From assembly GCA_024274785.1 (NCBI GenBank), contig JAJSAM010000071.1, positions 24,733-88,732 on the forward strand: a stretch of DNA of 64,000 nt, in the 5' to 3' direction. Origin of the DNA: Planctomycetota bacterium. Lineage in GTDB: Bacteria; Planctomycetota; JAJSAM01. Every line of letters starts with the position of its first letter. Position 1 is the stretch's first letter. The notes below the pieces were generated by a model. It was given only the letters and a program-made list of their open reading frames with translations, was not told the origin of the DNA and searched no databases. The translations under genes and the position numbers were made by a program. This document shows, one piece after another, positions 13,313-26,773 of the stretch.

Positions 13313-14632
13313 ATGGGCAAGCTCATCAAGTGGCTGATCGTCATCATCATCCTGGTGGGGGTGGGCGTCTGGTTCGGCGTGCCGGCGCTCCTCGGCACCG
13401 GGTTCGCGCAGGAGAAGATCCGGAAGGCGATGGCCGATGGCACCGGAAGAGAGGTCGAACTCGGTGACATCTCCTTCGGTTGGACCAGCGGACTCACCGT
13501 CAGCGACGTCGTCGTCAAACAGAAGGCCGGAGACTTCGCCGAGGAGGGGCCTCTCTTCAAGCTGAAGGGGCTGAGCCTGGACCTCGGGTGGAAGCAGATC
13601 CTCGACCAGAAGATCGAGGTGAGCGATCTCACCATCGACGGTCCCTCGATCGTGATCGTCCGGGATCGAAATGGGAACTTCAACTTCGACGACCTCATCG
13701 AGAAGACCGCCGACGAGTCGGCGCCGGAGCCGTCACCGGGAAAGAAGGCACCCCCGGTCACCGTGAACCTCTTCATCAACGCCGGCCGCGTGCTCTTCAT
13801 CGATCAGAAGGCCGGCACCCGCATCGAAATGAAGGACATCGATGCCAAAGCCCAGTGGATGGAGGGACGCCTCGTCATCGACTCCGAGTTCGACCTGAAC
13901 GGGGGAGGCGTGAGACTCGTCGCCAACGCGGATCTGTCGAAGCAGCCGTCGCCTTTCGAGGTGAAGGAATTCGTGATCGACGGCTCGACGTTCAGTGCCA
14001 ACGGCGTTCACCTCGCCTCGTTCATTCCGCTGATGGGGGACAAGCCGCAGAATGCGTCCGGGACCCTGGGATTCCGGATCGAGGGATTGAAAGCGGACGG
14101 GCTCGACATGGAATCCCTCAAGCGCTCGCTCACCGGGTCAGGGGATCTCTCGCTCGCGGCGGGGACGATGGCCAGCGGTCCGGTCACCCAGATCTACGCC
14201 GCGCTGCGCGCCATCGGCGCACGGGACCTCGGTGCCCTGGCCGCGGGTGGCGAAGGGGGAGAGGCGCTCTCGTTCGATCTCCTGCAGTCCACGTTTTCCA
14301 TTCACGACGGCCGCATCTTCACCGACGACCTCTCCTTGAAGGGGGCGGGACTGAACCTCGAGATCGCCGGTTCCACGGGACTGGATGGCACGGTGGACTA
14401 CACGATGATCGCGGCGGGACTGGATGAACTCATCGCCAGGAACAAGAACCTCGAGAAGGTCCTCGGTGACTCCGGTACGATCCCGTTCGGCTTCAAGGGA
14501 TCACTCAGCTCGCCGAAAATCACGGTGGACGCGGAAGGGGCACTGAAGAACGCCGCGGAGCGTCTCATCGACGATCAACTCGGGGACAAGGTGCCCGGCG
14601 GACTGAGGGGCCTGCTTCCCGGCGGAAAGTAG
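13313..14632 (+). CDS. AsmA family protein
   Basis: N-terminal TM helix, TGREVELGDI, RDRNGNFNFDDL and C-terminal beta-rich GSTGLDGTVDY...GSLSSP. Confidence 0.75.
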   Translation: MGKLIKWLIVIIILVGVGVWFGVPALLGTGFAQEKIRKAMADGTGREVELGDISFGWTSGLTVSDVVVKQKAGDFAEEGPLFKLKGLSLDLGWKQILDQKIEVSDLTIDGPSIVIVRDRNGNFNFDDLIEKTADESAPEPSPGKKAPPVTVNLFINAGRVLFIDQKAGTRIEMKDIDAKAQWMEGRLVIDSEFDLNGGGVRLVANADLSKQPSPFEVKEFVIDGSTFSANGVHLASFIPLMGDKPQNASGTLGFRIEGLKADGLDMESLKRSLTGSGDLSLAAGTMASGPVTQIYAALRAIGARDLGALAAGGEGGEALSFDLLQSTFSIHDGRIFTDDLSLKGAGLNLEIAGSTGLDGTVDYTMIAAGLDELIARNKNLEKVLGDSGTIPFGFKGSLSSPKITVDAEGALKNAAERLIDDQLGDKVPGGLRGLLPGGK

Positions 14633-14642
14633 AGGGGACATC

Positions 14643-15377
14643 TTGAGCGAGTTGCTCTACACCGAACTCTCGGACTGGTGGCCGGTCATGAGCGATCCCG
14701 CCCACTACGACGAGGAGGCGGATATCTTTCGCGACGCCATCGAGCAGACCACCACCATCCCGGTGCGGGAGGTCCTCGAACTCGGTTGCGGCGGAGGCAA
14801 CAACGCCAGCCACCTGAAAGACCATTGGAAGCTGACTCTCGTGGACCTCTCCCCGGGAATGCTCGAGGTCAGCGCCGAGTTGAATCCCGAGTGTGAACAT
14901 GTGGAGGGGGACATGCGCACCTTGAGGATGGGCCGGCAGTTCGATGCCGTGTTTGTTCACGATGCGATCGTCTACATGACCACCGAAGCGGACCTGCTCG
15001 CGGCGATGACCACCGCGTTTCAGCACACCCGGCCCGGAGGCGTGGCCCTCTTCGTTCCCGACTACACGGTCGAGAGCTTCGCACCCTTCACGAGCAACGG
15101 CGGACACGATCGAGGGAATCGCTCGATGCGATACCTGGAGTGGGCCTACGATCCGGACCCCTCCGACCACACCTACACCATGTCGTTCTCCTACATGCTC
15201 CGTGAGCCCGGGAAACCGCTTCGTTGCGAGTTCGAAGAGCACGTGATGGGGCTCTTTCCCCGGAAGAACTGGCTCGATCTCATCGCCCGCGCCGGATTCG
15301 AAGCCACCACCCTGCCCTACGACCACAGCAGTTTCGGGCCCAGCCTGAACTCCGAGCTGTTTCTCGGCGTGCGGTAG
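14643..15377 (+). CDS. Class I SAM-dependent methyltransferase
   Basis: VLELGCGGG, VDLSPGML, GDMR and FDAVFVHDAI motifs. Confidence 0.88.
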   Translation: MSELLYTELSDWWPVMSDPAHYDEEADIFRDAIEQTTTIPVREVLELGCGGGNNASHLKDHWKLTLVDLSPGMLEVSAELNPECEHVEGDMRTLRMGRQFDAVFVHDAIVYMTTEADLLAAMTTAFQHTRPGGVALFVPDYTVESFAPFTSNGGHDRGNRSMRYLEWAYDPDPSDHTYTMSFSYMLREPGKPLRCEFEEHVMGLFPRKNWLDLIARAGFEATTLPYDHSSFGPSLNSELFLGVR

Positions 15378-15473
15378 CGCGGAAGAGGTGCGGAATCAAG
15401 CACGCCGATCCAGGGATCGGCGCGCTTTCGTTCGGGAATTCAACAAGCCCCAACCAATCAGAAGCCCCAATAA

Positions 15474-15950
15474 CTAGAAGCCCAGCACGTCATCCAGCGC
15501 AGTCTGCGCGGAAGAGGAGAAGTCTTCGCTGATCTCCTCGTCCGCTTCACGTGGCTTATCCGAGTTCTTCGCCTCCGTGAATACTTCTTCCAGCCTTCTG
15601 GCGGTTTCGCTCGCATAGAGGCGGACCATTCCGATCGTCGTCGCCTCATCGAAGATCACCGTCAACAACGTGCGGTCTCCGATCAGAGAGAGCTGAATGT
15701 TGTCGCGGAGCCCCTGGTGGAACATGACCGAGAACTCTTCCTCACCAAGAACCCGGGCCATTTCCTTCGTGGCGGCGAACGAGCCCGCCACCAACGCGGA
15801 GATGGTGTCCGAGTCGAACGATTGCGTGCTTCCGCGCTTGGTGATCATGTGACCGCCCTTGTCCACGAGAAGCGCAGCACGGGCATTCGAGAGCCTGAGG
15901 AACTCCGACAGGATGTTGTCGATGACCGCCATGTCGTCCCGGTAGAACAC
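15474..15950 (-). CDS. mglB: MglB-type roadblock/LC7 protein (GAP for MglA); true start uncertain
   Basis: LLVDKGG, DTISALVAGSFAATKEMARVLGEEEF, FHQG and VIFDEATTIGMVRL parallel myxobacterial MglB; adjacent to mglA. Confidence 0.85.
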   Translation of the reverse strand: MFYRDDMAVIDNILSEFLRLSNARAALLVDKGGHMITKRGSTQSFDSDTISALVAGSFAATKEMARVLGEEEFSVMFHQGLRDNIQLSLIGDRTLLTVIFDEATTIGMVRLYASETARRLEEVFTEAKNSDKPREADEEISEDFSSSAQTALDDVLGF

Positions 15951-16025
15951 CAGGCGATTCTCACGGATAGAGGCATCGTCGCGCAGGAGGGGCTTTTCAT
16001 CAGCCTGGTTGTTTTGGCGTTCATT

Positions 16026-17192
16026 TCAGAGCACCCCGAACGAATTGAGGATGAGGCCGAGGGCGCCGAAGACGACGATGCCCAAGGCGACCAGTGTGAG
16101 TATCTTGCCCCGGTTGTTACCGATGGACGCATTCTGGAGCAGCACTTTGCCGGTGCGCTTCGCAGGTGCGCTGATCCTCGGCACCTGGTGCTTCTTCCCG
16201 GCGTTCTTCTTCTTCTTCTTCTTCTTCTTTTGCTGCGGTGATGCGTACTTCCTTCTTGCGGGCACCTGGGCAACCGATGGGCCCGCATCGGGAACCTGCC
16301 CGGCAGCTCTTGCCGGAGGGGCATCCGATGGGGGGGCACACTCGCCTCGTGAGGGCACGGCGGCCCGGGATGGGGCACCTTGGTTCGGCATCCCGCCCTG
16401 CTGCTGCGGCGGCGATGCGGGCGGAGGCCCAGCAGGAGCCACCCGGGGAGCCGGAGCCACCTGGGCGGCCGGTGCCACCTGGGGAGCCGGTGCCACCTGG
16501 GGAGCCGGTGCCACCTGGGGAGCCGGTGCCACCTGGGGAGCCGGTGCCACCGAAGCGGCTGCAACTGGTGCCTCTGCCTTGGCTACCGGCCTGGCACTCG
16601 TCGCGGTCCGCTGCTTGCTCAGGTTCTCGAGCACCAGCGAGGACAGCGCCTTCAATGTGGGGAAGACCCCCTCCCCGGTATTGGCAACCGCCTCGAAGGT
16701 CGGCAGGCCGCGGGGATTGAGTTTCCGGTTCAGGGTTTCAATGTCGAGGGCTCCCGGGAGATCGCGCTTGTTGAACTGGATCAGCATGGGGAGCTGTTCG
16801 AGCACCTTTCCGGCCTCGAGCAGGTTGTTTCGCAGGTTCTCCAGGGACTCCAGGTTCTCCTCGAGCTTGTCGGCCTGGGAGTCCGCCACAAAGATGATCC
16901 CGTCGACTCCCTGCAACACGAGCTTGCGGGTCGAGTTGTAGTAGACCTGGCCCGGCACGGTGTACAGCTGGAACTTCGTCCTCATCCCCGCGATGTTTCC
17001 CAGATCGAGGGGCATGTAGTCGAAGAACAACGTCCGATCACCCTCCGTCGCGATCGACGTCAGCTCACCCTTGTTGGACTCCGGAGCTTTGAGATGCACC
17101 ACCTCGATGTTCGTGGTCTTGCCGCTCAAGCCAGGACCGTAGTAGACGATCTTGCAGTTCACTTCACGGAGGGCGAAGTTGATCTGAACCAT
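16026..17192 (-). CDS. mglA: MglA small GTPase with Pro/Ala repeat linker, poly-Lys tract and C-terminal TM helix
   Basis: KIVYYGPGLSGKTTN (G1), EGDRTLFFD, YTVPGQ (G3), NKRD (G4); extension of about 190 aa. Confidence 0.92.
   Translation of the reverse strand: MVQINFALREVNCKIVYYGPGLSGKTTNIEVVHLKAPESNKGELTSIATEGDRTLFFDYMPLDLGNIAGMRTKFQLYTVPGQVYYNSTRKLVLQGVDGIIFVADSQADKLEENLESLENLRNNLLEAGKVLEQLPMLIQFNKRDLPGALDIETLNRKLNPRGLPTFEAVANTGEGVFPTLKALSSLVLENLSKQRTATSARPVAKAEAPVAAASVAPAPQVAPAPQVAPAPQVAPAPQVAPAAQVAPAPRVAPAGPPPASPPQQQGGMPNQGAPSRAAVPSRGECAPPSDAPPARAAGQVPDAGPSVAQVPARRKYASPQQKKKKKKKKNAGKKHQVPRISAPAKRTGKVLLQNASIGNNRGKILTLVALGIVVFGALGLILNSFGVL
16204..16230. repeat. (TTC)n trinucleotide repeat encoding K8 on the minus strand
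   Basis: ttcttcttcttcttcttcttcttcttt read directly. Confidence 0.85.
16435..16550. repeat. 18-bp tandem repeat (about 6 units) encoding VAPAPQ
   Basis: GGAGCCGGTGCCACCTGG-type units at 16447, 16465, 16483, 16501, 16519 and 16537 (first two variant, last partial). Confidence 0.92.
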
Positions 17193-17218
17193 GCCTCAGC
17201 CCTTTCCATCCAATGACT

Positions 17219-17575
17219 TCATGCGATGTGTATCTCCCCGAGAGCGCCGATCCGGCGCGCCGTACTGCGAATCTCGAGTTCTGCCTGTCCGAGATCGATG
17301 CCTCGGTCCATCACAACCACGAGGTATGCTTCCCCGGTGGCTTCGAAAACCATCTCGCCGTCGGATGACGTGAGGCTCAGCCGTGAAAAGGGGCCGAGTC
17401 CCCGGTCAGCGAGGGCGCGGCCGGTGCGCAACACCACGTTCGAGGCCATGGCCGCAACCCGGTCCTGATCGAGGCTTCCGCTCAGCCGGGAAGAGATGAC
17501 CATGCCGTCCCGACTCACCACCAGCGAACCGCTGATGCCGATGAGCTCGTTCAGGTCTTCGAGTACGCTTTGCAT
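17219..17575 (-). CDS. Roadblock/LC7 domain protein
   Basis: MQSVLEDLNELIGISGSLVVSRDGMVI..DRVAAMAS..YLVVV roadblock pattern. Confidence 0.82.
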   Translation of the reverse strand: MQSVLEDLNELIGISGSLVVSRDGMVISSRLSGSLDQDRVAAMASNVVLRTGRALADRGLGPFSRLSLTSSDGEMVFEATGEAYLVVVMDRGIDLGQAELEIRSTARRIGALGEIHIA

Positions 17576-17577
17576 GC

Positions 17578-18735
17578 CTATCCCTCCCCCTCCGCAGAGA
17601 GACTTCGGGCGGCAAACTCGCCGACCAATCGTCGCGCGGGACCGACCTTGAGGGGACGACCGAAGCTTGCGGCCAGTGCCACCCCCTTCAGTTGGTTGAC
17701 TGTTATTCCCCCGAAATCGCCCTCGATCGTGCACCAATCGAGGGCGCCGAATTCCATCTTCCGCGTTGCGTCTGAGGCGGTGTCCAGTATCTCGGCGGCC
17801 AGGGCAGCGAACTCTTCACAGGAGAGCTGGCTCGTGCCGCCGGCCATGTTCACCGGCCGTCCGTCGGGCCCGAGTGCCATGACGTTCGTGATTCCCTGGT
17901 GGCTCGCCAACTCGATCACGGTGTCGGAAATGCGCGCCTTGTCGATATGCGCTTCCGTGCAGATGCAACTGCTGGGATCGGTGAGTGCGCTCAGTGGGAA
18001 TCTGCCGGGGTGATGGACGAACCTCCTGTTCGCCTCGGCCGCTCGGCAACGCTCAGCAGTGGATGGCCCCGGTGTCGATGAGGGATCCTCTTCCGCGGGA
18101 ACCTCCATCGCCGTGCGGAAGATCATCAGGTCCTCGTAATCAGGTGAGAGCCTGCGGATCTCAGCCAGCTCGGCGTCGAAGTGATCCAGTGCGCCGATGG
18201 CGTAGTAGAGCTGGGCCAGGATCAGGCGCGCTTTCAGGTTCTGTGCGTTGAGCCGGAGCGCTCTTCGGAGCAGTGCTTCGCCCTCGATGCCGTCGTTGGC
18301 GAGGATATGCTGGAAGAACTTCTCTGCGTGTACCTCGCCGGCCACGAGGTAGGGCTTCTCATTCAGCGGATAGCGGCTGGCACATTCATCACAGATCGCG
18401 AGGGTCCGCTCGTGATCTCCGAGTTCAAGATAGCAATGGGCCAGGCTGTTGAAAACCGCCGGGGCGGGGTGCGTGGCCGCCTGTTTCTTCAGGCGGGAGA
18501 TCTCGCCCTTCAGCCCGTCCTTGCGGAGGTATGTGCTGATGGATGCCAACCGTTCCGAACTCGGGAACAAGGCGAGTCCGCGCTTGGCGATCCTGCTGGC
18601 GTCGCGAATCTTGCCGAGCGATATGTACCGCTCCGCAAGGTCGGCGAAGGCCGCCGGCGTGGGGGCGCGTTTGACCGCTCCCCTCAAACGATGCAGGTCG
18701 CTCATCTTTCTCAGCTTTTCAAGTACACTCGTCAC
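17578..18735 (-). CDS. TPR repeats plus C-terminal roadblock/LC7 domain protein
   Basis: TPR-like helices (AFADLAERY, FNSLAHCYLELG, ARLILAQLY); C-terminal GITNVMALGPDG..FAALA..MEFGAL..CTIEG. Confidence 0.72.
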   Translation of the reverse strand: MTSVLEKLRKMSDLHRLRGAVKRAPTPAAFADLAERYISLGKIRDASRIAKRGLALFPSSERLASISTYLRKDGLKGEISRLKKQAATHPAPAVFNSLAHCYLELGDHERTLAICDECASRYPLNEKPYLVAGEVHAEKFFQHILANDGIEGEALLRRALRLNAQNLKARLILAQLYYAIGALDHFDAELAEIRRLSPDYEDLMIFRTAMEVPAEEDPSSTPGPSTAERCRAAEANRRFVHHPGRFPLSALTDPSSCICTEAHIDKARISDTVIELASHQGITNVMALGPDGRPVNMAGGTSQLSCEEFAALAAEILDTASDATRKMEFGALDWCTIEGDFGGITVNQLKGVALAASFGRPLKVGPARRLVGEFAARSLSAEGEG

Positions 18736-18817
18736 GAGTTCGTTCCGTTCCTGTGTTGTCCGATGGTTCCCTATCGACCATTCGGTGCATCGGGATAAAG
18801 CTGTTCCCGTGCGCCAC

Positions 18818-21800
18818 TCACTTCCTCAACACGAAAATCTGACCATCTTCTGAAGCAACCAGGATCCGGTCGCCCACGGCGGTTGCCGGGACGAGGATCC
18901 GATTCACATCCTCACCGAGTTCCAATCGCCACACCATGTGGAAACGATCGTCCTTGAAGTCCATGGCGGTCAGCAATCCGTCGTCACCGGCAAAGAACAG
19001 GCGGTTTCCTGAGTGAGCGGGCGCGGTCCTCAAGGGCCTCTTCAACTCGAAGGAGTCCACCATCGCTCCGTCGCGGAGGGCGTAAACCCGACCATTGGAG
19101 GTGGCGACGATGACCATTCGTCCAAAGCTCGTGGGGGTGGTCTTGATCTCCGCCCCGGTGGCGTAGTTCCAGAGTTCCCGTCCGCTTTCGAGGTCGAATG
19201 CGTGAACGGTTCCGGTGGTGCTCACGAGGTGGAGTCTGGACCCGCTGATGCTGGGGCCGCCGAGGATGGAGCCCGCGGCACCGCGAGGCATCACGTCGAA
19301 CTCCTTTCGTCCCCGGGCAACGCTCAACCCATAGCAGTGGCCATCCTCACCCGTCACGTACACGCGTCCCTGGTGAACGACCGGATCTCCCCTTACCTCA
19401 GCCGGGAGCAAGGTCTGCCAGGCCTGTTTGCCGGTGACGGCGTCAAACGCGGTCACCCGGCGGGAGTCGTCGCAGACAATCACGAACTCGCCCGCGAGGA
19501 CCACCCGTCGGTACACCGAACCGGGGACGCGCTTCGACCACGTCGGCAGGCGGGTCGCCAGGGAGATGCGCTGCACGCTTCCCTCGATCGTCGCCAGGTA
19601 GAGGTGGCCGTCGCGGACCGCCACCCCTGCCGCGATGCCGCTCAGGCTGTCCGCCCGGTACACCTCCTCGATGGCCCGCTGCTTCGGCTTGATCCGGTAG
19701 ACCAGACTGCTGCGAGTGGCGAGGAACACGTGGTCCCCACTCACGGCCGGCAAACCCTCCACCGAGCCTTCGATCCCCTCCTGCCAATCGACCTCCTTCA
19801 CCAGATCCACGACGATCTCTTCCTGCTCGGAGAGACGCAGGATCTCGGTCTCCCGTTGTTTCAGGTCGAGCCGCAGGACGGTTTTTCCGCTGCGGGCGAA
19901 CCCGGAGTGGCGCAACTCGACAATCGCATCGGCTCCCGGGCGCCAGCGGATCCAGGACGGAGTCAACTTCCCGGTCGTCATTCCGTTCACGTGGATCTCC
20001 GCGCCGGCCGGCCAGGAATTCACCCGAAGAGGGACCCGGACGCGGTCGAGCACCTCCCGGAGGTAGTAATCCCGGATGAGGGCGATCGCGATTTCTCGCG
20101 CATCTCCGAACCGGCCGTCGTCGAAGAGGTTGTCCATCTCCCGTATCCGGTCCGCCACCACAGTCAGGCTCTTCTTCAACTCCTCGATCTTCTGGGGAAC
20201 ATTCAGGTTCTGCAGGGGAGTGTGATCGATCGCCATGTCGGTGGCCCGCTGGTACTTGATCAGTGCCGCGCTCGGTTCGCCCTGCATGAGCAGTTTTTCG
20301 GCGTCGCCCACCAGTCTCACGCTGCATTCCTGGATCTCATCTCTGGCTGCGGCGACGGAACTCTCGAACCTCTCCTTCAGAACATTGAGCTCTTCCTGCT
20401 TCCGGACCGAGTCCTTGTAGGCGGAGGTGTATCTGAACTTCTCCGCGACAGTCATCAACTCCTTGATGTCCTGGTCGATCTGAACACTGAACCGATCGAG
20501 CAGCGCTTCCGCTTCCCGGTAGGTGGCGACCAGGCTCACCACGTTCAGGTCGCCCTTGCTGAGCTCATCCTGCAGTTGTGACAACCTGGCGCTGGCTTGG
20601 GCGATGTTCTTCGACATTTCGGCCAAAGCCTTGCCGGCGCGCTTCTCCTCCGCGGCGAGGGTCGCCTTGCCATCGAGTTCATAGGTGATGTAGGCGTAGC
20701 CGAATCCGCCGAGGACCAGGCAGACCAGGAACGCGATGGCGACCCGCTTCAGCCCCCTGCTCTTGTGCTCCTGGCGGGTCAGCAGGTGCTCCAGCCGCTG
20801 CCTCACATCCGCACGTGAACGATCGATGACGAGGATCTTCCGGAGGAGATTCGTCACCTGCGGCCAGTCCTTGCGCTGGGAATACCAGTCGACCATGGTC
20901 TGGTATTCGGCGACCGCTTCCACGGACATCTTGCCGGACAGGTAGACGCTCACCAGCAGGTGGCGCAGCGCGAATTCCTCCGGCGCCAGGCCGATGGCAC
21001 GCTGAAGAACCTCGATGGCCTGTTCGGTCCGAGCGAGTTCCAGGCAGATTCCGGCGACCACTCTGGCGCGCTCGACGATCTCTTCAGTGCAATCTTCCAG
21101 GTCCCGCTGGTTCTCCGTGTAGATCCGGATCAGGCGGTCCGATGCCGCGAGATCGGTGGGGAGCATCGTTACGATCTTGCGACTGATGTCAAACGCTTCC
21201 TGGGCGTTTCCCGCGGCGAGATTCTGGTCCGTCAGGCGGCGATAAAGGTCGGCCGCGGCCTTGAATTCTCCGGCGCCTTCGTACGCCGCGGCCAGCGCGA
21301 GCTGCTGATCGGGGCTCTCGGCGCCGACTTCGGCAACACGCTCGAGAAACCTGATTCCCTGCTCGACGTCCCCACGCTCCAGCGCTGCCGTTCCCTCCCG
21401 CATGAGCTCGTCCGCGGGGAGGGGCTCCACCGCGCCGGCATCGACGAGAAGCGCCAGGATCTTCAGCACCTCGAACTTGCTGACGTACGAGGAATCGATG
21501 ATCTTCTCGATGTCGCTCCGGCCGTCAATTGCCGCCAGCACCCGGTCGCACCACGGTTCCTCGAAGATGGGGTCCGTCAGGTCCATGTTGCGGCCGGTGT
21601 AGCGGAAGACCACACGCACGGAATCGACGCGACTCTGGATCATCTCCGACTCGTCGATCCGACGGGCGGCCTCCATGATCAGGCTGTTCACGTTGAAGGT
21701 CAGCCGGGAAAGATCCCCTTCGGCCGGGCCGCGATGATCAGTCGGGGCACCTTCAATGAACTCGAAGCTGGCATCCTTCCAGATGAAGAGATTGTAGATC

Positions 21801-22141
21801 TCCTCCTCGATTTCGAGCCGGAGAGCGTCCTGAATGACCTCTCGGGGCACCATCGCGGTCTCTTCCAGTACCGCCCAGAGAGGCTTGTTGTCCTGCTCCT
21901 GGAGGTTCCTGGCAGACTGGAGGTCCTCTTCCGTGATGCGCTGGAATCGCAGCAGGATTCGGCCGAGGGAATCCGAATCCGCAGAGCCTCGGGACAGCAT
22001 GGAAACGCCGTCCTTCGAGAAGTAGATCGACTTGCGCGTATCGCCGTCGAAGATGTTCAGCGTGCCTTCCTTCCTATTGATGGAAAGCATCTGAAACACG
22101 TTCGCCAGATCTACGCTGTTGAGGTTGCCTTTGAGGGCCAT
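18818..22141 (-). CDS. DUF4388-TPR-TM-coiled coil-PEGA-PQQ-like beta-propeller membrane protein
   Basis: MALKGNLNSVDLANVFQML (DUF4388), SLIMEAARRIDE, TPRs, TM helix VAIAFLVCLVLGGFGYAYI, VNSWPAGAEIHVNG..GKLTP (PEGA), repeats such as AFDAVTGKQAW and AFDLESGRELW. Confidence 0.8.
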   Translation of the reverse strand: MALKGNLNSVDLANVFQMLSINRKEGTLNIFDGDTRKSIYFSKDGVSMLSRGSADSDSLGRILLRFQRITEEDLQSARNLQEQDNKPLWAVLEETAMVPREVIQDALRLEIEEEIYNLFIWKDASFEFIEGAPTDHRGPAEGDLSRLTFNVNSLIMEAARRIDESEMIQSRVDSVRVVFRYTGRNMDLTDPIFEEPWCDRVLAAIDGRSDIEKIIDSSYVSKFEVLKILALLVDAGAVEPLPADELMREGTAALERGDVEQGIRFLERVAEVGAESPDQQLALAAAYEGAGEFKAAADLYRRLTDQNLAAGNAQEAFDISRKIVTMLPTDLAASDRLIRIYTENQRDLEDCTEEIVERARVVAGICLELARTEQAIEVLQRAIGLAPEEFALRHLLVSVYLSGKMSVEAVAEYQTMVDWYSQRKDWPQVTNLLRKILVIDRSRADVRQRLEHLLTRQEHKSRGLKRVAIAFLVCLVLGGFGYAYITYELDGKATLAAEEKRAGKALAEMSKNIAQASARLSQLQDELSKGDLNVVSLVATYREAEALLDRFSVQIDQDIKELMTVAEKFRYTSAYKDSVRKQEELNVLKERFESSVAAARDEIQECSVRLVGDAEKLLMQGEPSAALIKYQRATDMAIDHTPLQNLNVPQKIEELKKSLTVVADRIREMDNLFDDGRFGDAREIAIALIRDYYLREVLDRVRVPLRVNSWPAGAEIHVNGMTTGKLTPSWIRWRPGADAIVELRHSGFARSGKTVLRLDLKQRETEILRLSEQEEIVVDLVKEVDWQEGIEGSVEGLPAVSGDHVFLATRSSLVYRIKPKQRAIEEVYRADSLSGIAAGVAVRDGHLYLATIEGSVQRISLATRLPTWSKRVPGSVYRRVVLAGEFVIVCDDSRRVTAFDAVTGKQAWQTLLPAEVRGDPVVHQGRVYVTGEDGHCYGLSVARGRKEFDVMPRGAAGSILGGPSISGSRLHLVSTTGTVHAFDLESGRELWNYATGAEIKTTPTSFGRMVIVATSNGRVYALRDGAMVDSFELKRPLRTAPAHSGNRLFFAGDDGLLTAMDFKDDRFHMVWRLELGEDVNRILVPATAVGDRILVASEDGQIFVLRK

Positions 22142-22386: not shown

Positions 22387-22953
22387 ATGAAGGGGCTCGC
22401 CATGCGAGTCAGGAACGTGTATCGGCGCTTTGCCGTGCTCCCATTCCTGTTGATTGCCGCCCGCTATCACCGCTACCGCTCCGACCTCGGACAGGCCCGG
22501 GACCACCTGATCAGCGCGACCCGGCTCGTTCCTCGCTGCTTCAAAGCTCACCTGAGACTGGGCGCGCTCTATCTCGAAGAACATCGGTTCCAGCGGGCGA
22601 AACGCGAGTTCCTCCTGGCCCGGGAAATCAACCCCGGCAAGTTCCGGAGACTCTACCCGCTGATCACCGGTCGATCCGGGGACATCAACATCAACCTGTT
22701 CTACTTTCCGGGCTTCACCGATCTGGAGTCGGAACAGGCGCCGGAGGACTTCCTGCGGGAGTTCATCGGTGAACCGCTCGACGAACTCGGCGCGGGGGCC
22801 GGCGACGAAGGTGTGGTCTGGGGAGATTTCGCGTCTTACCGCGAGTTTCGGAAGTTCCAGGAGATGGGGCCGTTTCAGCCCGAGGAGACCGATCAGGTCG
22901 ATTGGAACGAGATCTTGCGTCGCCTGCCTGACGAGGACGAGCCGACCGGATAG
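22387..22953 (+). CDS. Hypothetical protein with a TPR-like motif and acidic C-terminus
   Basis: AHLRLGALYLEEHRFQRAKREF TPR-like segment; AGGAG RBS. Confidence 0.6.
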   Translation: MKGLAMRVRNVYRRFAVLPFLLIAARYHRYRSDLGQARDHLISATRLVPRCFKAHLRLGALYLEEHRFQRAKREFLLAREINPGKFRRLYPLITGRSGDININLFYFPGFTDLESEQAPEDFLREFIGEPLDELGAGAGDEGVVWGDFASYREFRKFQEMGPFQPEETDQVDWNEILRRLPDEDEPTG

Positions 22954-22965
22954 GATGACCTGTCC

Positions 22966-24321
22966 ATGTGTGAGGGAAAGTCCGAGCAGAACCCCGACCG
23001 GGATCCGGATGGGAATCACGGCGGGGACCACGATGCCACAGAAACCGGCTGCTTCCGGCCCGGCGATACCTTCGCCGGGTTCCTGACCGGGGACCGGGAG
23101 CGCGACCGGCGTAACGTGGACATTCTGCTGGACACGATCGCCGAGGTGAATCGCACCCGCGACCTCGAGACGCTGCTGGTCTCGGTGGTCGACCGCACTC
23201 TCCGGTTCACGATGGCCGAGCGCGGCATCCTGATGCTCTACGATTTCGCGGGCAAGCTCCACATCCACGTGGCTCGCGACAACTGCGGCAACTTCCTCGA
23301 CCACCATCTCGACTACAGCCGGCCCGTTCCGAACCAGGTCCTCGAGGACGGCAAGGCGGTCTGCATGACCTCTACCGCCAGCGAGAACCGGATCTCCCTG
23401 ACCCAGTCCAGCCAGCACCTCGGCCTGCTCACGGTGATGTGCGCTCCCCTCTCGGTCCAGGGCCGCGTCATCGGCGTCCTCTACGTGGACAGTTCGGCCC
23501 GCTCCCGCAAGTTCACCGACGGGGATTTCAGCCTCTTCAAGGCCCTCTCCTACCAGTTGGCCATCGCGATCGAGAATGCCCGCATGGCCAGGAAAGAGAG
23601 CGGTCTCTCGCTCGCTCGCGATCTGCAGCGCAGCCTGATGCCGACGGAAGCCGTCGCTCTGCCCGGATTCGACATCCATGGCCTCTCCCGGATGTGCGAC
23701 GAGGTCGGCGGTGACTATTTCGACTACATCCGGCACAAGGAGGGGCGGCTCGGCCTGGTCGTCGGGGACGTTTCCGGGCACGGATTCGTCGCCGCCCTGC
23801 TCATGGCCACCGGGCGGGCGCTCCTTCGGGCCTACGCTTCGACCGAATCGGACCCGGCGCGCGTGGTGACCCTCCTGAACCGCGAACTCGCCCGGGACCT
23901 GGCGACGGACCAGTTCATGACGATCTTCTACGGAGACCTCGATCTTGAGCGGCGATCGATCCGTTACGCCACGGCGGGGCACTGTGATCCGATCCTGCTT
24001 CGCGGAACCTCGGGTAATATCGAGACCCTCGCCGGTCGTGGGATGGGGCTCGGCTTCGACCGGAACTACACCTACTCGGACTTCGGGCCGGTCAGCCTTC
24101 GAAAGGGCGACGTTCTCCTGATCTACACCGACGGCATCCCCGAAGCTCGCAACCCCCAGGGTGGCTTCTTCGGCATGGAACGGGTCCACGAGATCCTGGC
24201 CGAGCGGCACGACACCGCCCGGGCTCTCGTGGAGCAACTCGTCAGCGAGGTTTCGGAGTTCTCAGGGGGAACCGGCTACGCGGACGATCTGACCGTGATC
24301 GCCGTGCGCGTCACGGAGTGA
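22966..24321 (+). CDS. GAF + SpoIIE/PP2C serine phosphatase (RsbU-like)
   Basis: VMCAPL..IGVLYVD (GAF); VGGDYFD, VGDVSGHG, YTDGI and DDLTVI (PP2C). Confidence 0.9.
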   Translation: MCEGKSEQNPDRDPDGNHGGDHDATETGCFRPGDTFAGFLTGDRERDRRNVDILLDTIAEVNRTRDLETLLVSVVDRTLRFTMAERGILMLYDFAGKLHIHVARDNCGNFLDHHLDYSRPVPNQVLEDGKAVCMTSTASENRISLTQSSQHLGLLTVMCAPLSVQGRVIGVLYVDSSARSRKFTDGDFSLFKALSYQLAIAIENARMARKESGLSLARDLQRSLMPTEAVALPGFDIHGLSRMCDEVGGDYFDYIRHKEGRLGLVVGDVSGHGFVAALLMATGRALLRAYASTESDPARVVTLLNRELARDLATDQFMTIFYGDLDLERRSIRYATAGHCDPILLRGTSGNIETLAGRGMGLGFDRNYTYSDFGPVSLRKGDVLLIYTDGIPEARNPQGGFFGMERVHEILAERHDTARALVEQLVSEVSEFSGGTGYADDLTVIAVRVTE

Positions 24322-26005: not shown

Positions 26006-26071
26006 GGCGACGAGGATACCCCTCCGAAAGGGTGAGCCGTGTCGGGAAATGCAGGCTAAGATTCCCGGTCC

Positions 26072-26773
26072 ATGAAACGATCGTGCAGCGCAAGGCAACC
26101 TCCGAAGTTCCGCGAACGGGCGAGGGTATGGTACGAGCGCCGGGGGCTGAAGAAGGGGATCCGTCATCTGGTCAACATCGGGGCGCTCACCCTGCTCGGA
26201 CACTCGGATGACCTCACCGATGAGCTGGACTGGGCTCTCGAACGACGGGTCTCGGTCGATCTGATCCGGGAAGTGTTCCTCCAGACCATGCTCTGCGCGG
26301 GCTATCCCCGTGCTCTGCATGCGTTCGAGAGGCTCGATGATGTCCTTAAGTCCAGGAAGCTCAGGGTTGCTCCGAGGTGCGACCGGGTTCCGCATCGCGC
26401 CACGGCCGGGGTGTTCTATCGCCGCCGCGGGCGGGAACTGTTCGAGGAAATCTACCGCGACGACACCTCGCTGGTGATGGCGAGGATCTCCGGTTTCCAT
26501 CCGGAGTTCATGGACTGGATCACGGAGGATGCCTACGGGAAGGTGCTTTCGCGGCCGTACCTCGACCTGATGACCCGCGAGATCCTCTCGTGCTGCCTGC
26601 TGGCGATTCTGAAACTCCCCCGCCAACTCACCCCCCACATTCGGGGTGCGCTCCGGGCGGGGGCGAAGGTCCGGGAGATCTCCGAGGCGATTTCGCAACT
26701 CGAACTGTTCATTCCCAGGCGCGCGGTGAAGGCGGCCCTGCTTCGCCTCGAGCGGGCGAGGACCACGCTCTGA
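26072..26773 (+). CDS. Tandem carboxymuconolactone decarboxylase (CMD/AhpD-like) family protein
   Basis: EVFLQ..AGYPRAL, AYGKVLSRP.LD..TRE and HIRGALRAG motifs. Confidence 0.72.
   Translation: MKRSCSARQPPKFRERARVWYERRGLKKGIRHLVNIGALTLLGHSDDLTDELDWALERRVSVDLIREVFLQTMLCAGYPRALHAFERLDDVLKSRKLRVAPRCDRVPHRATAGVFYRRRGRELFEEIYRDDTSLVMARISGFHPEFMDWITEDAYGKVLSRPYLDLMTREILSCCLLAILKLPRQLTPHIRGALRAGAKVREISEAISQLELFIPRRAVKAALLRLERARTTL

Follow-up and report, generated by a model that had tools for sequence, protein, structure and literature searches.

A candidate membrane-tethered MglA/MglB GTPase switch with a transmembrane partner and extra roadblock proteins in Planctomycetota

How would an MglA/MglB switch operate if its GTPase stayed tied to the membrane? 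The Myxococcus protein shuttles between cytosol and cell poles as it works. A version permanently held at the membrane must function in some other way, a point relevant to how small-GTPase switches became membrane-bound regulators. A gene cluster in a 64-kb stretch of planctomycete DNA (the window) raises this question in a phylum in which polarity, budding and division without FtsZ are not well understood. The cluster encodes a large bitopic membrane protein, here termed BIG, a TPR-roadblock fusion, a stand-alone roadblock protein, MglA and MglB (Table 1). With slightly better than even confidence, we read it as a self-contained, membrane-tethered MglA/MglB small-GTPase switch with a transmembrane platform and an extra roadblock pair.

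Table 1. Positions in the window of the module genes, the segments of MglA and the divergent neighbouring genes
Feature	Position	Strand	Basis
BIG, 1107-aa bitopic membrane protein	18818..22141	-	Pfam, NCBIfam, hydropathy, AF2 model, Foldseek
TPR-roadblock fusion, 385 aa	17578..18735	-	Pfam, AF2 model, Foldseek, hhalign
Stand-alone roadblock, 118 aa from ATG	17219..17575	-	Pfam, PDB sequence match
MglA, 388 aa (whole gene)	16026..17192	-	match to M. xanthus MglA
MglA G domain, residues 1-195	16608..17192	-	match to M. xanthus MglA and invariant residues
MglA linker, residues 196-363	16104..16607	-	translation, TRF, composition
MglA C-terminal transmembrane helix, residues 364-388, and stop codon	16026..16103	-	Kyte-Doolittle
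MglB, 158 aa, roadblock GAP homologue	15474..15950	-	Pfam and M. xanthus MglB match
188-aa TPR protein, divergent, possible accessory gene	22387..22953	+	weak Pfam TPR_16/TPR_2
GAF-SpoIIE/PP2C gene, single, after the 188-aa TPR gene	22966-24321		Pfam

The first-pass annotation had described five closely packed, co-oriented genes, and this description holds. All five are read from the minus strand between 22141 and 15474, with intergenic gaps of 82, 2, 26 and 75 nt in the order BIG to MglB. The roadblock gene starts at an ATG 2 nt downstream of the TPR-roadblock TAG stop, with a purine-rich stretch ahead of it; in many loci the stop and start codons of these two genes overlap or abut.

Is the arrangement maintained in other genomes? 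The order BIG, TPR-roadblock, roadblock, MglA is present in 19 of 19 relatives' loci that have downstream DNA, and MglB comes next in 14 of these, contig ends cutting the other five. In 20 more distant Planctomycetota loci, MglA is found in 18, MglB in 15 and BIG in 14. By blastp of open reading frames from 40 loci, the roadblock and the TPR-roadblock are each present in 39, MglA in 37, BIG in 34 and MglB in 29. The five module genes are the only widely conserved neighbours among these 40 loci, and the same blastp comparison found no effector or output gene conserved beside the module. The neighbourhood check that had been proposed thus finds the order kept in relatives and across many Planctomycetota families; its recurrence in dozens of genomes puts the arrangement far outside what chance would give. 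Among 401 Planctomycetota genomes sampled, the TPR-roadblock occurs in 204 and an MglA orthologue in 222. A hand tally of the two genome lists gives 196 genomes with both, 26 with MglA only, eight with the TPR-roadblock only and 171 with neither. Roughly one sampled genome in two has the module, which offers five concrete candidate genes for genetic study. The five-gene unit can be split: one family has two loci (L084 and L085) where the TPR-roadblock and roadblock genes adjoin alone, MglA lying elsewhere in the genome.

Is the GTPase a genuine MglA? The protein aligns one to one with M. xanthus MglA (252 bits) and scores 244 bits against the ‘Gliding protein mglA’ chain 3t12_A. Invariant across 30 orthologues are G19-T26, R53, T78, Q82 and N141-K142-D144. 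The first of these is the P-loop (GxxxxGK[ST]; here G19-P20-G21-x-S23-G24-K25-T26). In the stretch T78-V79-P80-G81-Q82, also invariant, Thr replaces the conserved Asp that precedes PGQ and Gln82 is the catalytic residue; the intrinsic arginine R53 occupies a position identical to that in 6hjh. Thr78 of MglA is named in PMC3000849, and the role of the arginine finger is described in PMC10933270. The G domain thus matches that of Myxococcus xanthus and Thermus thermophilus position for position, with R53, Thr78 for Asp, Gln82 and NKxD in common, and as in those organisms a roadblock homologue, MglB, is encoded beside MglA. As judged from its sequence, the window MglA is of the group-1 type with every catalytic hallmark. 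MglB has a Pfam Robl_LC7 match (8.7e-12; 45.1 bits against a cut-off of 23) and scores 94.6 bits against M. xanthus MglB (6h5b_B); its gene lies 75 nt from mglA. The score with the MglB equivalog model NF052242 is 98.6 bits, below the cut-off of 200. We take it to be the cognate roadblock GAP homologue.

Beyond the G domain, MglA departs from the Myxococcus and Thermus proteins. It is 388 aa rather than a single domain of ~195 aa, a length that the first-pass annotation did not remark on, and its G domain is followed by a long linker and then a transmembrane anchor; open frames among the matches in the phylum are mostly of 230-600 aa. The linker (~170 aa) is Pro/Ala-rich with a net positive composition. 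It includes a tandem repeat of 18 nt x 6.3 (TRF, 16438-16551) and a lysine run, which TRF reports as TTC x 8.7 on the plus strand (16204-16229). Leash length is 75-234 aa, again Pro/Ala-rich. The terminal helix has a Kyte-Doolittle 19-mer mean of 2.81, and six residues lie beyond it. Such a helix, with basic residues ahead of it, is found in 29 of 31 complete orthologues; in the remaining two, from one family, a 65-aa Lys-rich tail replaces it. The first-pass annotation had proposed a membrane-localised GTPase. This is likely, on grounds other than those given there, because MglA has its own C-terminal transmembrane anchor. With this helix at the end of a flexible leash, the G domain should lie on the cytoplasmic face of the inner membrane.

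Could the genes adjoin by chance, and the long MglA frame be an artefact of high G+C? The G+C content of the window is 62-68%, with numerous long spurious frames, and a promoter and terminator scan yielded nothing above chance level. Against this stand the short intergenic gaps and the retention of gene order and strand across many families, as well as a terminal helix that persists in MglA orthologues while the linker sequence ahead of it is not conserved. Contradicted by the conserved order and the conserved helix, this explanation is highly improbable.

Two further roadblock domains set the module apart from the Myxococcus and Thermus systems, one of them fused to TPRs. In a whole-genome profile search, the genome's only three Robl_LC7 matches all fall in the module, in support of the earlier description of three roadblock-domain proteins there. 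For the TPR-roadblock protein the Robl_LC7 score is 20.6 bits in the protein hmmscan (cut-off 23) and 23.6 bits, above the cut-off, in the whole-genome search. Its AF2 model (pLDDT 91) has TPR helices at residues 3-236 and an alpha-beta-beta-alpha-beta-beta-beta-alpha domain at 266-379, which Foldseek aligns with the solved roadblocks 9jue_F and 7yh1_A (TM 0.82, rmsd 2.1-2.3). This C-terminal domain has the roadblock fold by AF2, Foldseek and hhalign; hhalign pairs it with the small roadblock family at 97.7% (E 1.9e-12), and a second hhalign comparison gave 95.2%. The small roadblock has a Robl_LC7 match of 2.3e-11 (Pfam), and its top solved relative is 7yh1_D (5.1e-11). It aligns with MglB at E 1.4e-7 (hhalign), with CvnB5 (3leq) at 7.5e-6 and weakly with LAMTOR4 (E 0.025); solved MglC is absent from its PDB matches at E<=1. 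By these comparisons the TPR-roadblock domain and the small roadblock are mutual closest relatives. Complex prediction of the two together with the MglA G domain gave a score of 0.00, a value that carries no verdict either way.

The CvnB5 match brings to mind the actinobacterial conservons (CvnA-D), in which one operon likewise encodes an MglA-family GTPase together with a membrane sensor and an MglB-type roadblock (PMC13343842, PMC4316618). Might the planctomycete module pass signals from the envelope on to physiology or gene expression through its membrane sensor, roadblocks and small GTPase, with no spatial role? The genome's other two MglA-like domains are both fused to GAF-histidine kinases, and GTPase-to-signalling wiring therefore exists in this organism. 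However, Pfam and NCBIfam detect no histidine kinase or CvnC-type domain in the five proteins, and the module encodes a true MglB. The window MglA is furthermore a group-1 protein with the intrinsic arginine, whereas group 2, that of the conservons, is without a conserved arginine finger (PMC4316618). A purely signalling role of this kind is unlikely.

The third departure from the Myxococcus and Thermus loci is the upstream gene for BIG, a bitopic PATAN-TPR-propeller protein. Pfam detects DUF4388 (PF14332; 5.8e-19, residues 4-165, 68.7 bits against a cut-off of 25), TPR families across residues 248-436 and PQQ_2 (5e-33), and hydropathy reveals one hydrophobic helix at 467-485. In the AF2 model (pLDDT 88.6) the cytoplasmic part comprises PATAN/DUF4388 at ~1-240, with a helical insert at 58-118, and a TPR array at 243-459; the periplasmic part consists of a helical region to ~700, a beta-sandwich at 703-755 and a BamB-like propeller at 775-1106. 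The DUF4388, TPRs, propeller and single transmembrane segment of the earlier description are thus sustained by Pfam, hydropathy and the model. The PEGA domain is not borne out by its Pfam score (E 0.0095; 16.3 bits, below the cut-off of 20.8), but a beta-sandwich is seen in the model. Seven of 32 BIG orthologues have no segment passing the hydropathy threshold at the expected transmembrane place. The propeller shares its fold with BamB (Foldseek E ~1e-21, TM up to 0.82), with equivalog scores below cut-off (TIGR03300, 122.3 against 285.2; NF008351, 72.1 against 423). Unlike BamB, which is a separate lipoprotein, it forms the C-terminal domain of an inner-membrane protein behind a transmembrane helix.

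Of interest is the helical insert, the site of an MshEN-like c-di-GMP motif. The MshEN-type model NF053729 is matched by 23 of 32 BIG orthologues at E<=1e-3, and it scores 47-61 bits (cut-off 38) in ten of ten orthologues preselected for motif-like sequence. The BIG of the window scores 21.1 bits, under the curated cut-off, and c-di-GMP input may therefore have been lost in this organism. The module brings together a Ras-like switch, a c-di-GMP-type motif and a periplasmic propeller.

Does BIG point to pili? The module could be a dedicated regulator of type IV pili, in which the PATAN domain of BIG contacts the PilB extension ATPase and MglA-GTP licenses pilus assembly at a given site, as with MglA/SgmX in Myxococcus and the PATAN regulators of Synechocystis. 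PATAN response regulators bind PilB1 (bioRxiv 10.1101/2021.06.11.447907), and MglA and the TPR protein SgmX stimulate pili (PMC11580455). The SgmX NCBIfam model is weakly matched by eight of 32 BIG orthologues, but these matches are probably generic TPR similarity, and no part in regulating pili is known for the BamB-like periplasmic propeller. The earlier remark that there are no motility genes is correct within the window; the genome (90% completeness) yields 14 matches to T2SSE-type ATPases and one to PilM_2, and none to the flagellar export protein FHIPEP. A T2SSE-type ATPase gene, sought as pilB/pilT adjacency, was found in none of the 40 Planctomycetota loci nor in the 64-kb window. Dedicated pilus control is a lesser possibility.

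How might the membrane-tethered switch work? The two extra roadblock domains would form a heterodimeric platform that acts as a scaffold or as a second regulator of the MglA nucleotide state; indirect support for their pairing comes from the adjacent or overlapping genes and from their being closest paralogues. BIG would be a platform across the membrane, and would position or gate the switch in response to c-di-GMP, a cue from the envelope or both. The GTP/GDP cycle, rather than driving recruitment of MglA from the cytosol, would decide the site in the membrane plane where an envelope-spanning machine assembles. As a guess, that machine might be pili, the budding or division site, or attachment structures.

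There is a resemblance to eukaryotic Ragulator-Rag, where LAMTOR roadblock heterodimers at the lysosome also combine several roadblock-fold subunits with a small GTPase at a membrane (Ragulator is described in PMC10933270). In the planctomycete module it is the GTPase that carries the anchor, where Ragulator relies on a lipidated scaffold protein; MglA, unlike Rag-type GTPases, has no roadblock domain of its own, and the roadblock heterodimer is a proposal. Might this be a eukaryote-like membrane-identity system in a bacterium? A membrane-fixed GTPase, a Ragulator/longin-like roadblock heterodimer and a transmembrane alpha-solenoid plus beta-propeller partner would then mark and shape membrane domains in Planctomycetota, such as the bud site, invaginations or uptake sites, and not steer motility. 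We consider this very unlikely.

To what extent is the tethered switch new? Makarova et al. are said to have reported in 2006 that PATAN (DUF4388) proteins are encoded near mglA/mglB. According to Wuichet and Sogaard-Andersen (2014; PMC4316618), PATAN genes occasionally occur near group 1 and 5 MglA, whose neighbourhoods vary widely. The planctomycete loci share with these the PATAN gene adjacent to MglA and MglB genes; they differ in a fixed five-gene order across a phylum and in that PATAN heads a transmembrane protein with a periplasmic propeller. The suggestion of an undescribed system therefore stands in part. The core is a close orthologue of myxobacterial MglA/MglB with a PATAN linkage already published in that paper, but no publication was found on the membrane-anchored five-gene form. 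Literature pairing MglA with planctomycetes, or MglA with ‘tail-anchored’, held nothing on planctomycete MglA or a relevant tail-anchored form, and the MglA-neighbourhood table S2 of PMC4316618 may already include planctomycete loci.

At the edges of the module, the GAF-PP2C ‘gene pair’ that the first-pass annotation had thought possibly linked is one GAF-SpoIIE/PP2C gene preceded by a TPR gene. The GAF-PP2C gene was rejected as a module partner: it has no syntenic match among the 40 loci, and its one weak match is elsewhere in L089. The divergent 188-aa TPR protein is found beside BIG in part of the loci (tblastn, eight of 40; blastp at 1e-8, four of 40). Near the other end of the module, a hairpin at 15403-15422 lies between convergent gene ends.

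Five genes lying head to tail on one strand of the window form a module that is real, conserved and clearly delimited: BIG, a bitopic protein, followed by a TPR-roadblock fusion, a small roadblock protein, MglA and MglB. The parts and their order recur in relatives. Among 40 relatives, 20 regions were taken around the best BIG matches, and BIG, TPR-roadblock, roadblock and MglA stand in the same order on one strand in all 19 that include downstream DNA (one does not). MglB is next in 14 of the 19; the remaining five end at contig ends. Another 20 loci were drawn from other Planctomycetota families. MglA adjoins the TPR-roadblock gene in 18 of them, MglB is present in 15 and BIG lies upstream in 14. 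Two loci of family f58 (L084 and L085, from genomes G080 and G327) keep just the two roadblock genes side by side, TPR-roadblock and roadblock, and the MglA orthologue is elsewhere in the genome.

The open reading frames of the window were also compared by blastp with all 40 loci, and the only widely common neighbours are the five module genes. With matches to both roadblock genes and MglA in 37 to 39 of the 40 loci, the operon proposed in the first-pass annotation is a conserved neighbourhood. The GAF-PP2C gene, which that annotation thought might be linked, is not common to the 40 loci and drops out as a conserved neighbour. A divergent gene for a 188-aa TPR protein is found in four of the 40 loci at 1e-8 (blastp) and in eight by a looser tblastn.

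Features of the module, its surroundings and related loci in the same genome (window positions unless a contig is named; loci matched by ORF blastp)
Feature	Position	Strand	Remark	Loci matched
Module, five genes head to tail	22141 to 15474	-	intergenic gaps 82, 2, 26, 75 nt	
BIG	22141-18818	-		34/40
TPR-roadblock	18735-17578	-		39/40
Roadblock	17575-17219	-		39/40
MglA	17192-16026	-		37/40
MglB	15950-15474	-		29/40
439-aa protein, AsmA/DUF748-like N-terminal region	13313-14632	+	Pfam	
SAM-dependent methyltransferase	14643-15377	+	Pfam; convergent with mglB	
Hairpin	15403-15422		between the convergent ends of mglB and the methyltransferase gene	
GAF + SpoIIE/PP2C phosphatase gene	22966-24321	+	Pfam 1.8e-49 and 4.7e-17	
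237-aa frame	26060-26770	+	upstream of module; matched loci all from one order	10/40
MglA-like G domain, L002	G000:C42:46692-47258 onward		44% identity to module MglA	
MglA-like G domain, L003	G000:C18:94026-94574 onward		39% identity to module MglA	
BIG-architecture paralogues	C12:25420-29166; C18:128913-130364; C22:106204-107340; C25:39578-40624		DUF4388-TPR, part with propeller	

What kind of system is this? Residues 3-193 of MglA align position for position with Myxococcus xanthus MglA (252 bits), and MglB is likewise similar to its M. xanthus counterpart (94.6 bits). The module is a new version of the MglA/MglB switch, not a separate kind of system. MglA is 388 aa long, a feature that the first-pass annotation did not mention. 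Its G domain is followed by a 170-aa Pro/Ala-rich linker of net positive charge, in which an 18-nt unit is repeated 6.3 times and lysines form a run, and then by a hydrophobic helix that ends six residues before the stop. Is the long frame an artefact? This is ruled out, because the terminal helix is kept in 29 of 31 complete orthologues (Kyte-Doolittle 19-mer mean 1.9-3.5; 2-28 residues after the helix), with linkers of 75-234 aa that are not conserved in sequence. The tail anchor, like the catalytic residues, is an observed feature of the module, and the basic residues that precede the helix are consistent with a cytoplasmic G domain. The two other orthologues (L081 and L082, from G024 and G185, single-contig genomes of 9.3-9.5 Mb in one family) have a 65-aa lysine-rich tail without a helix, which may be an alternative mode of membrane attachment.

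In family f3 the linker has a V-[DE]-A-x-P-L motif, with I/V-R a few residues on, at a distance of about 35 residues from the TM helix on its N-terminal side in eight of eight loci (L027-L034); the rest of the linker is unconserved. The motif could be a docking peptide, for example for a TPR domain. The two other MglA-like G domains of the window's own genome (L002 and L003) are N-terminal portions of long proteins, whose downstream parts appear by eye to be GAF-like and histidine-kinase regions.

The 385-aa TPR-roadblock protein consists of a TPR array and a C-terminal domain that reaches 20.6 bits against the Pfam roadblock cut-off of 23 in a protein scan, and 23.6 bits, just over the cut-off, in a whole-genome family search. 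Judged from the AF2 model (pLDDT 91; Foldseek matches 9jue_F and 7yh1_A at TM 0.82), this domain is a true roadblock fold. The small roadblock protein has 118 aa, and its ATG lies 2 nt past the stop of the fusion gene. Several points suggest that the two may form a heterodimer, because the closest profile match of the small protein is the roadblock domain of the fusion (97.7%, E 1.9e-12), with MglB more distant (94%, E 1.4e-7); because the solved structures nearest to it are 7yh1, from an Asgard archaeal roadblock protein (5.1e-11), and CvnB5 (7.5e-6), not MglB; because the fusion-gene stop overlaps the small roadblock start in many loci; and because Robl_LC7 has only three matches in the genome, all within the module.

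BIG, with 1107 aa, was read in the first-pass annotation as carrying DUF4388, TPRs, PEGA and a beta-propeller. Pfam finds DUF4388/PATAN (5.8e-19), several TPR families and PQQ_2 (5e-33); PEGA stays below threshold. Hydropathy gives a single hydrophobic helix at residues 467-485, with basic residues just before it. In the AF2 model (pLDDT 88.6, pTM 0.50) the PATAN domain contains an inserted helical segment (58-118) and precedes a TPR array (243-459), a long helix from 470, a helical region to about 700, a beta-sandwich (703-755) and a propeller (775-1106). The propeller is like BamB in fold (E about 1e-21, TM about 0.8 against BamB structures) but falls far under the cut-offs of the BamB equivalog models. 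This helical segment within PATAN corresponds to a c-di-GMP-binding motif related to MshE (NCBIfam NF053729), which is found at E<=1e-3 in 23 of 32 BIG orthologues. The cut-off of that model is 38 bits. Ten of ten orthologues preselected for motif-like sequence reach 47-61 bits, and the window's own BIG falls short at 21.1 bits.

A BIG search of the same genome gives 15 matches, and relatives also have several per genome. At L029 (G011:C282) TAG codons interrupt the frame twice in the BIG orthologue and once in that of TPR-roadblock, which may reflect decay, assembly error or read-through; a few other genomes have one in-frame stop inside the TPR-roadblock match.

Is the system undescribed, as the first-pass annotation proposed? 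A literature search of main texts found no publication on planctomycete MglA, tail-anchored MglA or this five-gene form, although table S2 of PMC4316618 may contain relevant loci; to that extent the proposal stands. It does not stand for the switch itself, which is a variant of MglA/MglB, or for PATAN proximity. According to PMC4316618, PATAN genes are occasional neighbours of MglA genes of groups 1 and 5, and the gene neighbourhoods of group 1 vary widely; for MglB near PATAN genes that paper cites Makarova et al. (2006). PATAN is equated with DUF4388 in bioRxiv 10.1101/2021.06.11.447907, which also mentions PATAN proteins annotated as GspE_N and reports that PilB1 is bound.

How might the module work? 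We infer that MglA would be held at the cytoplasmic face of the membrane by its long leash, with MglB as its probable GAP. The TPR-roadblock/roadblock pair may form a second platform, either a scaffold or a regulator of nucleotide state, and BIG would be the transmembrane partner through which c-di-GMP or an envelope cue, or the two together, act on the switch. The GTPase cycle could then fix the site where an envelope machine is built. Pili are the output candidate with the best precedent, though without genomic linkage here. The source genome (4.54 Mb in 83 contigs, with the window at C60:24733-88732) has 14 matches to T2SSE-type ATPases, none of them in the window, and one to PilM_2; no T2SSE-type ATPase is found in any of the 40 loci. 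FHIPEP, of flagellar export, has no match in this 90% complete genome.

The module parts are widespread in the phylum. Among 401 evenly drawn Planctomycetota genomes, full-length matches to a TPR-roadblock profile (E<=1e-10) occur in 204, nearly always one per genome, and in 106 of the 243 of high quality; an MglA G-domain profile (E<=1e-60) matches 222. The two co-occur: by a manual tally over these related, non-independent genomes, 196 have both, 26 have MglA alone, eight have TPR-roadblock alone and 171 have neither. Atlas look-alikes suggest that Gemmatimonadota and Zixibacteria may have TPR-roadblock fusions too, whereas most extended MglA clusters may belong to Planctomycetota.
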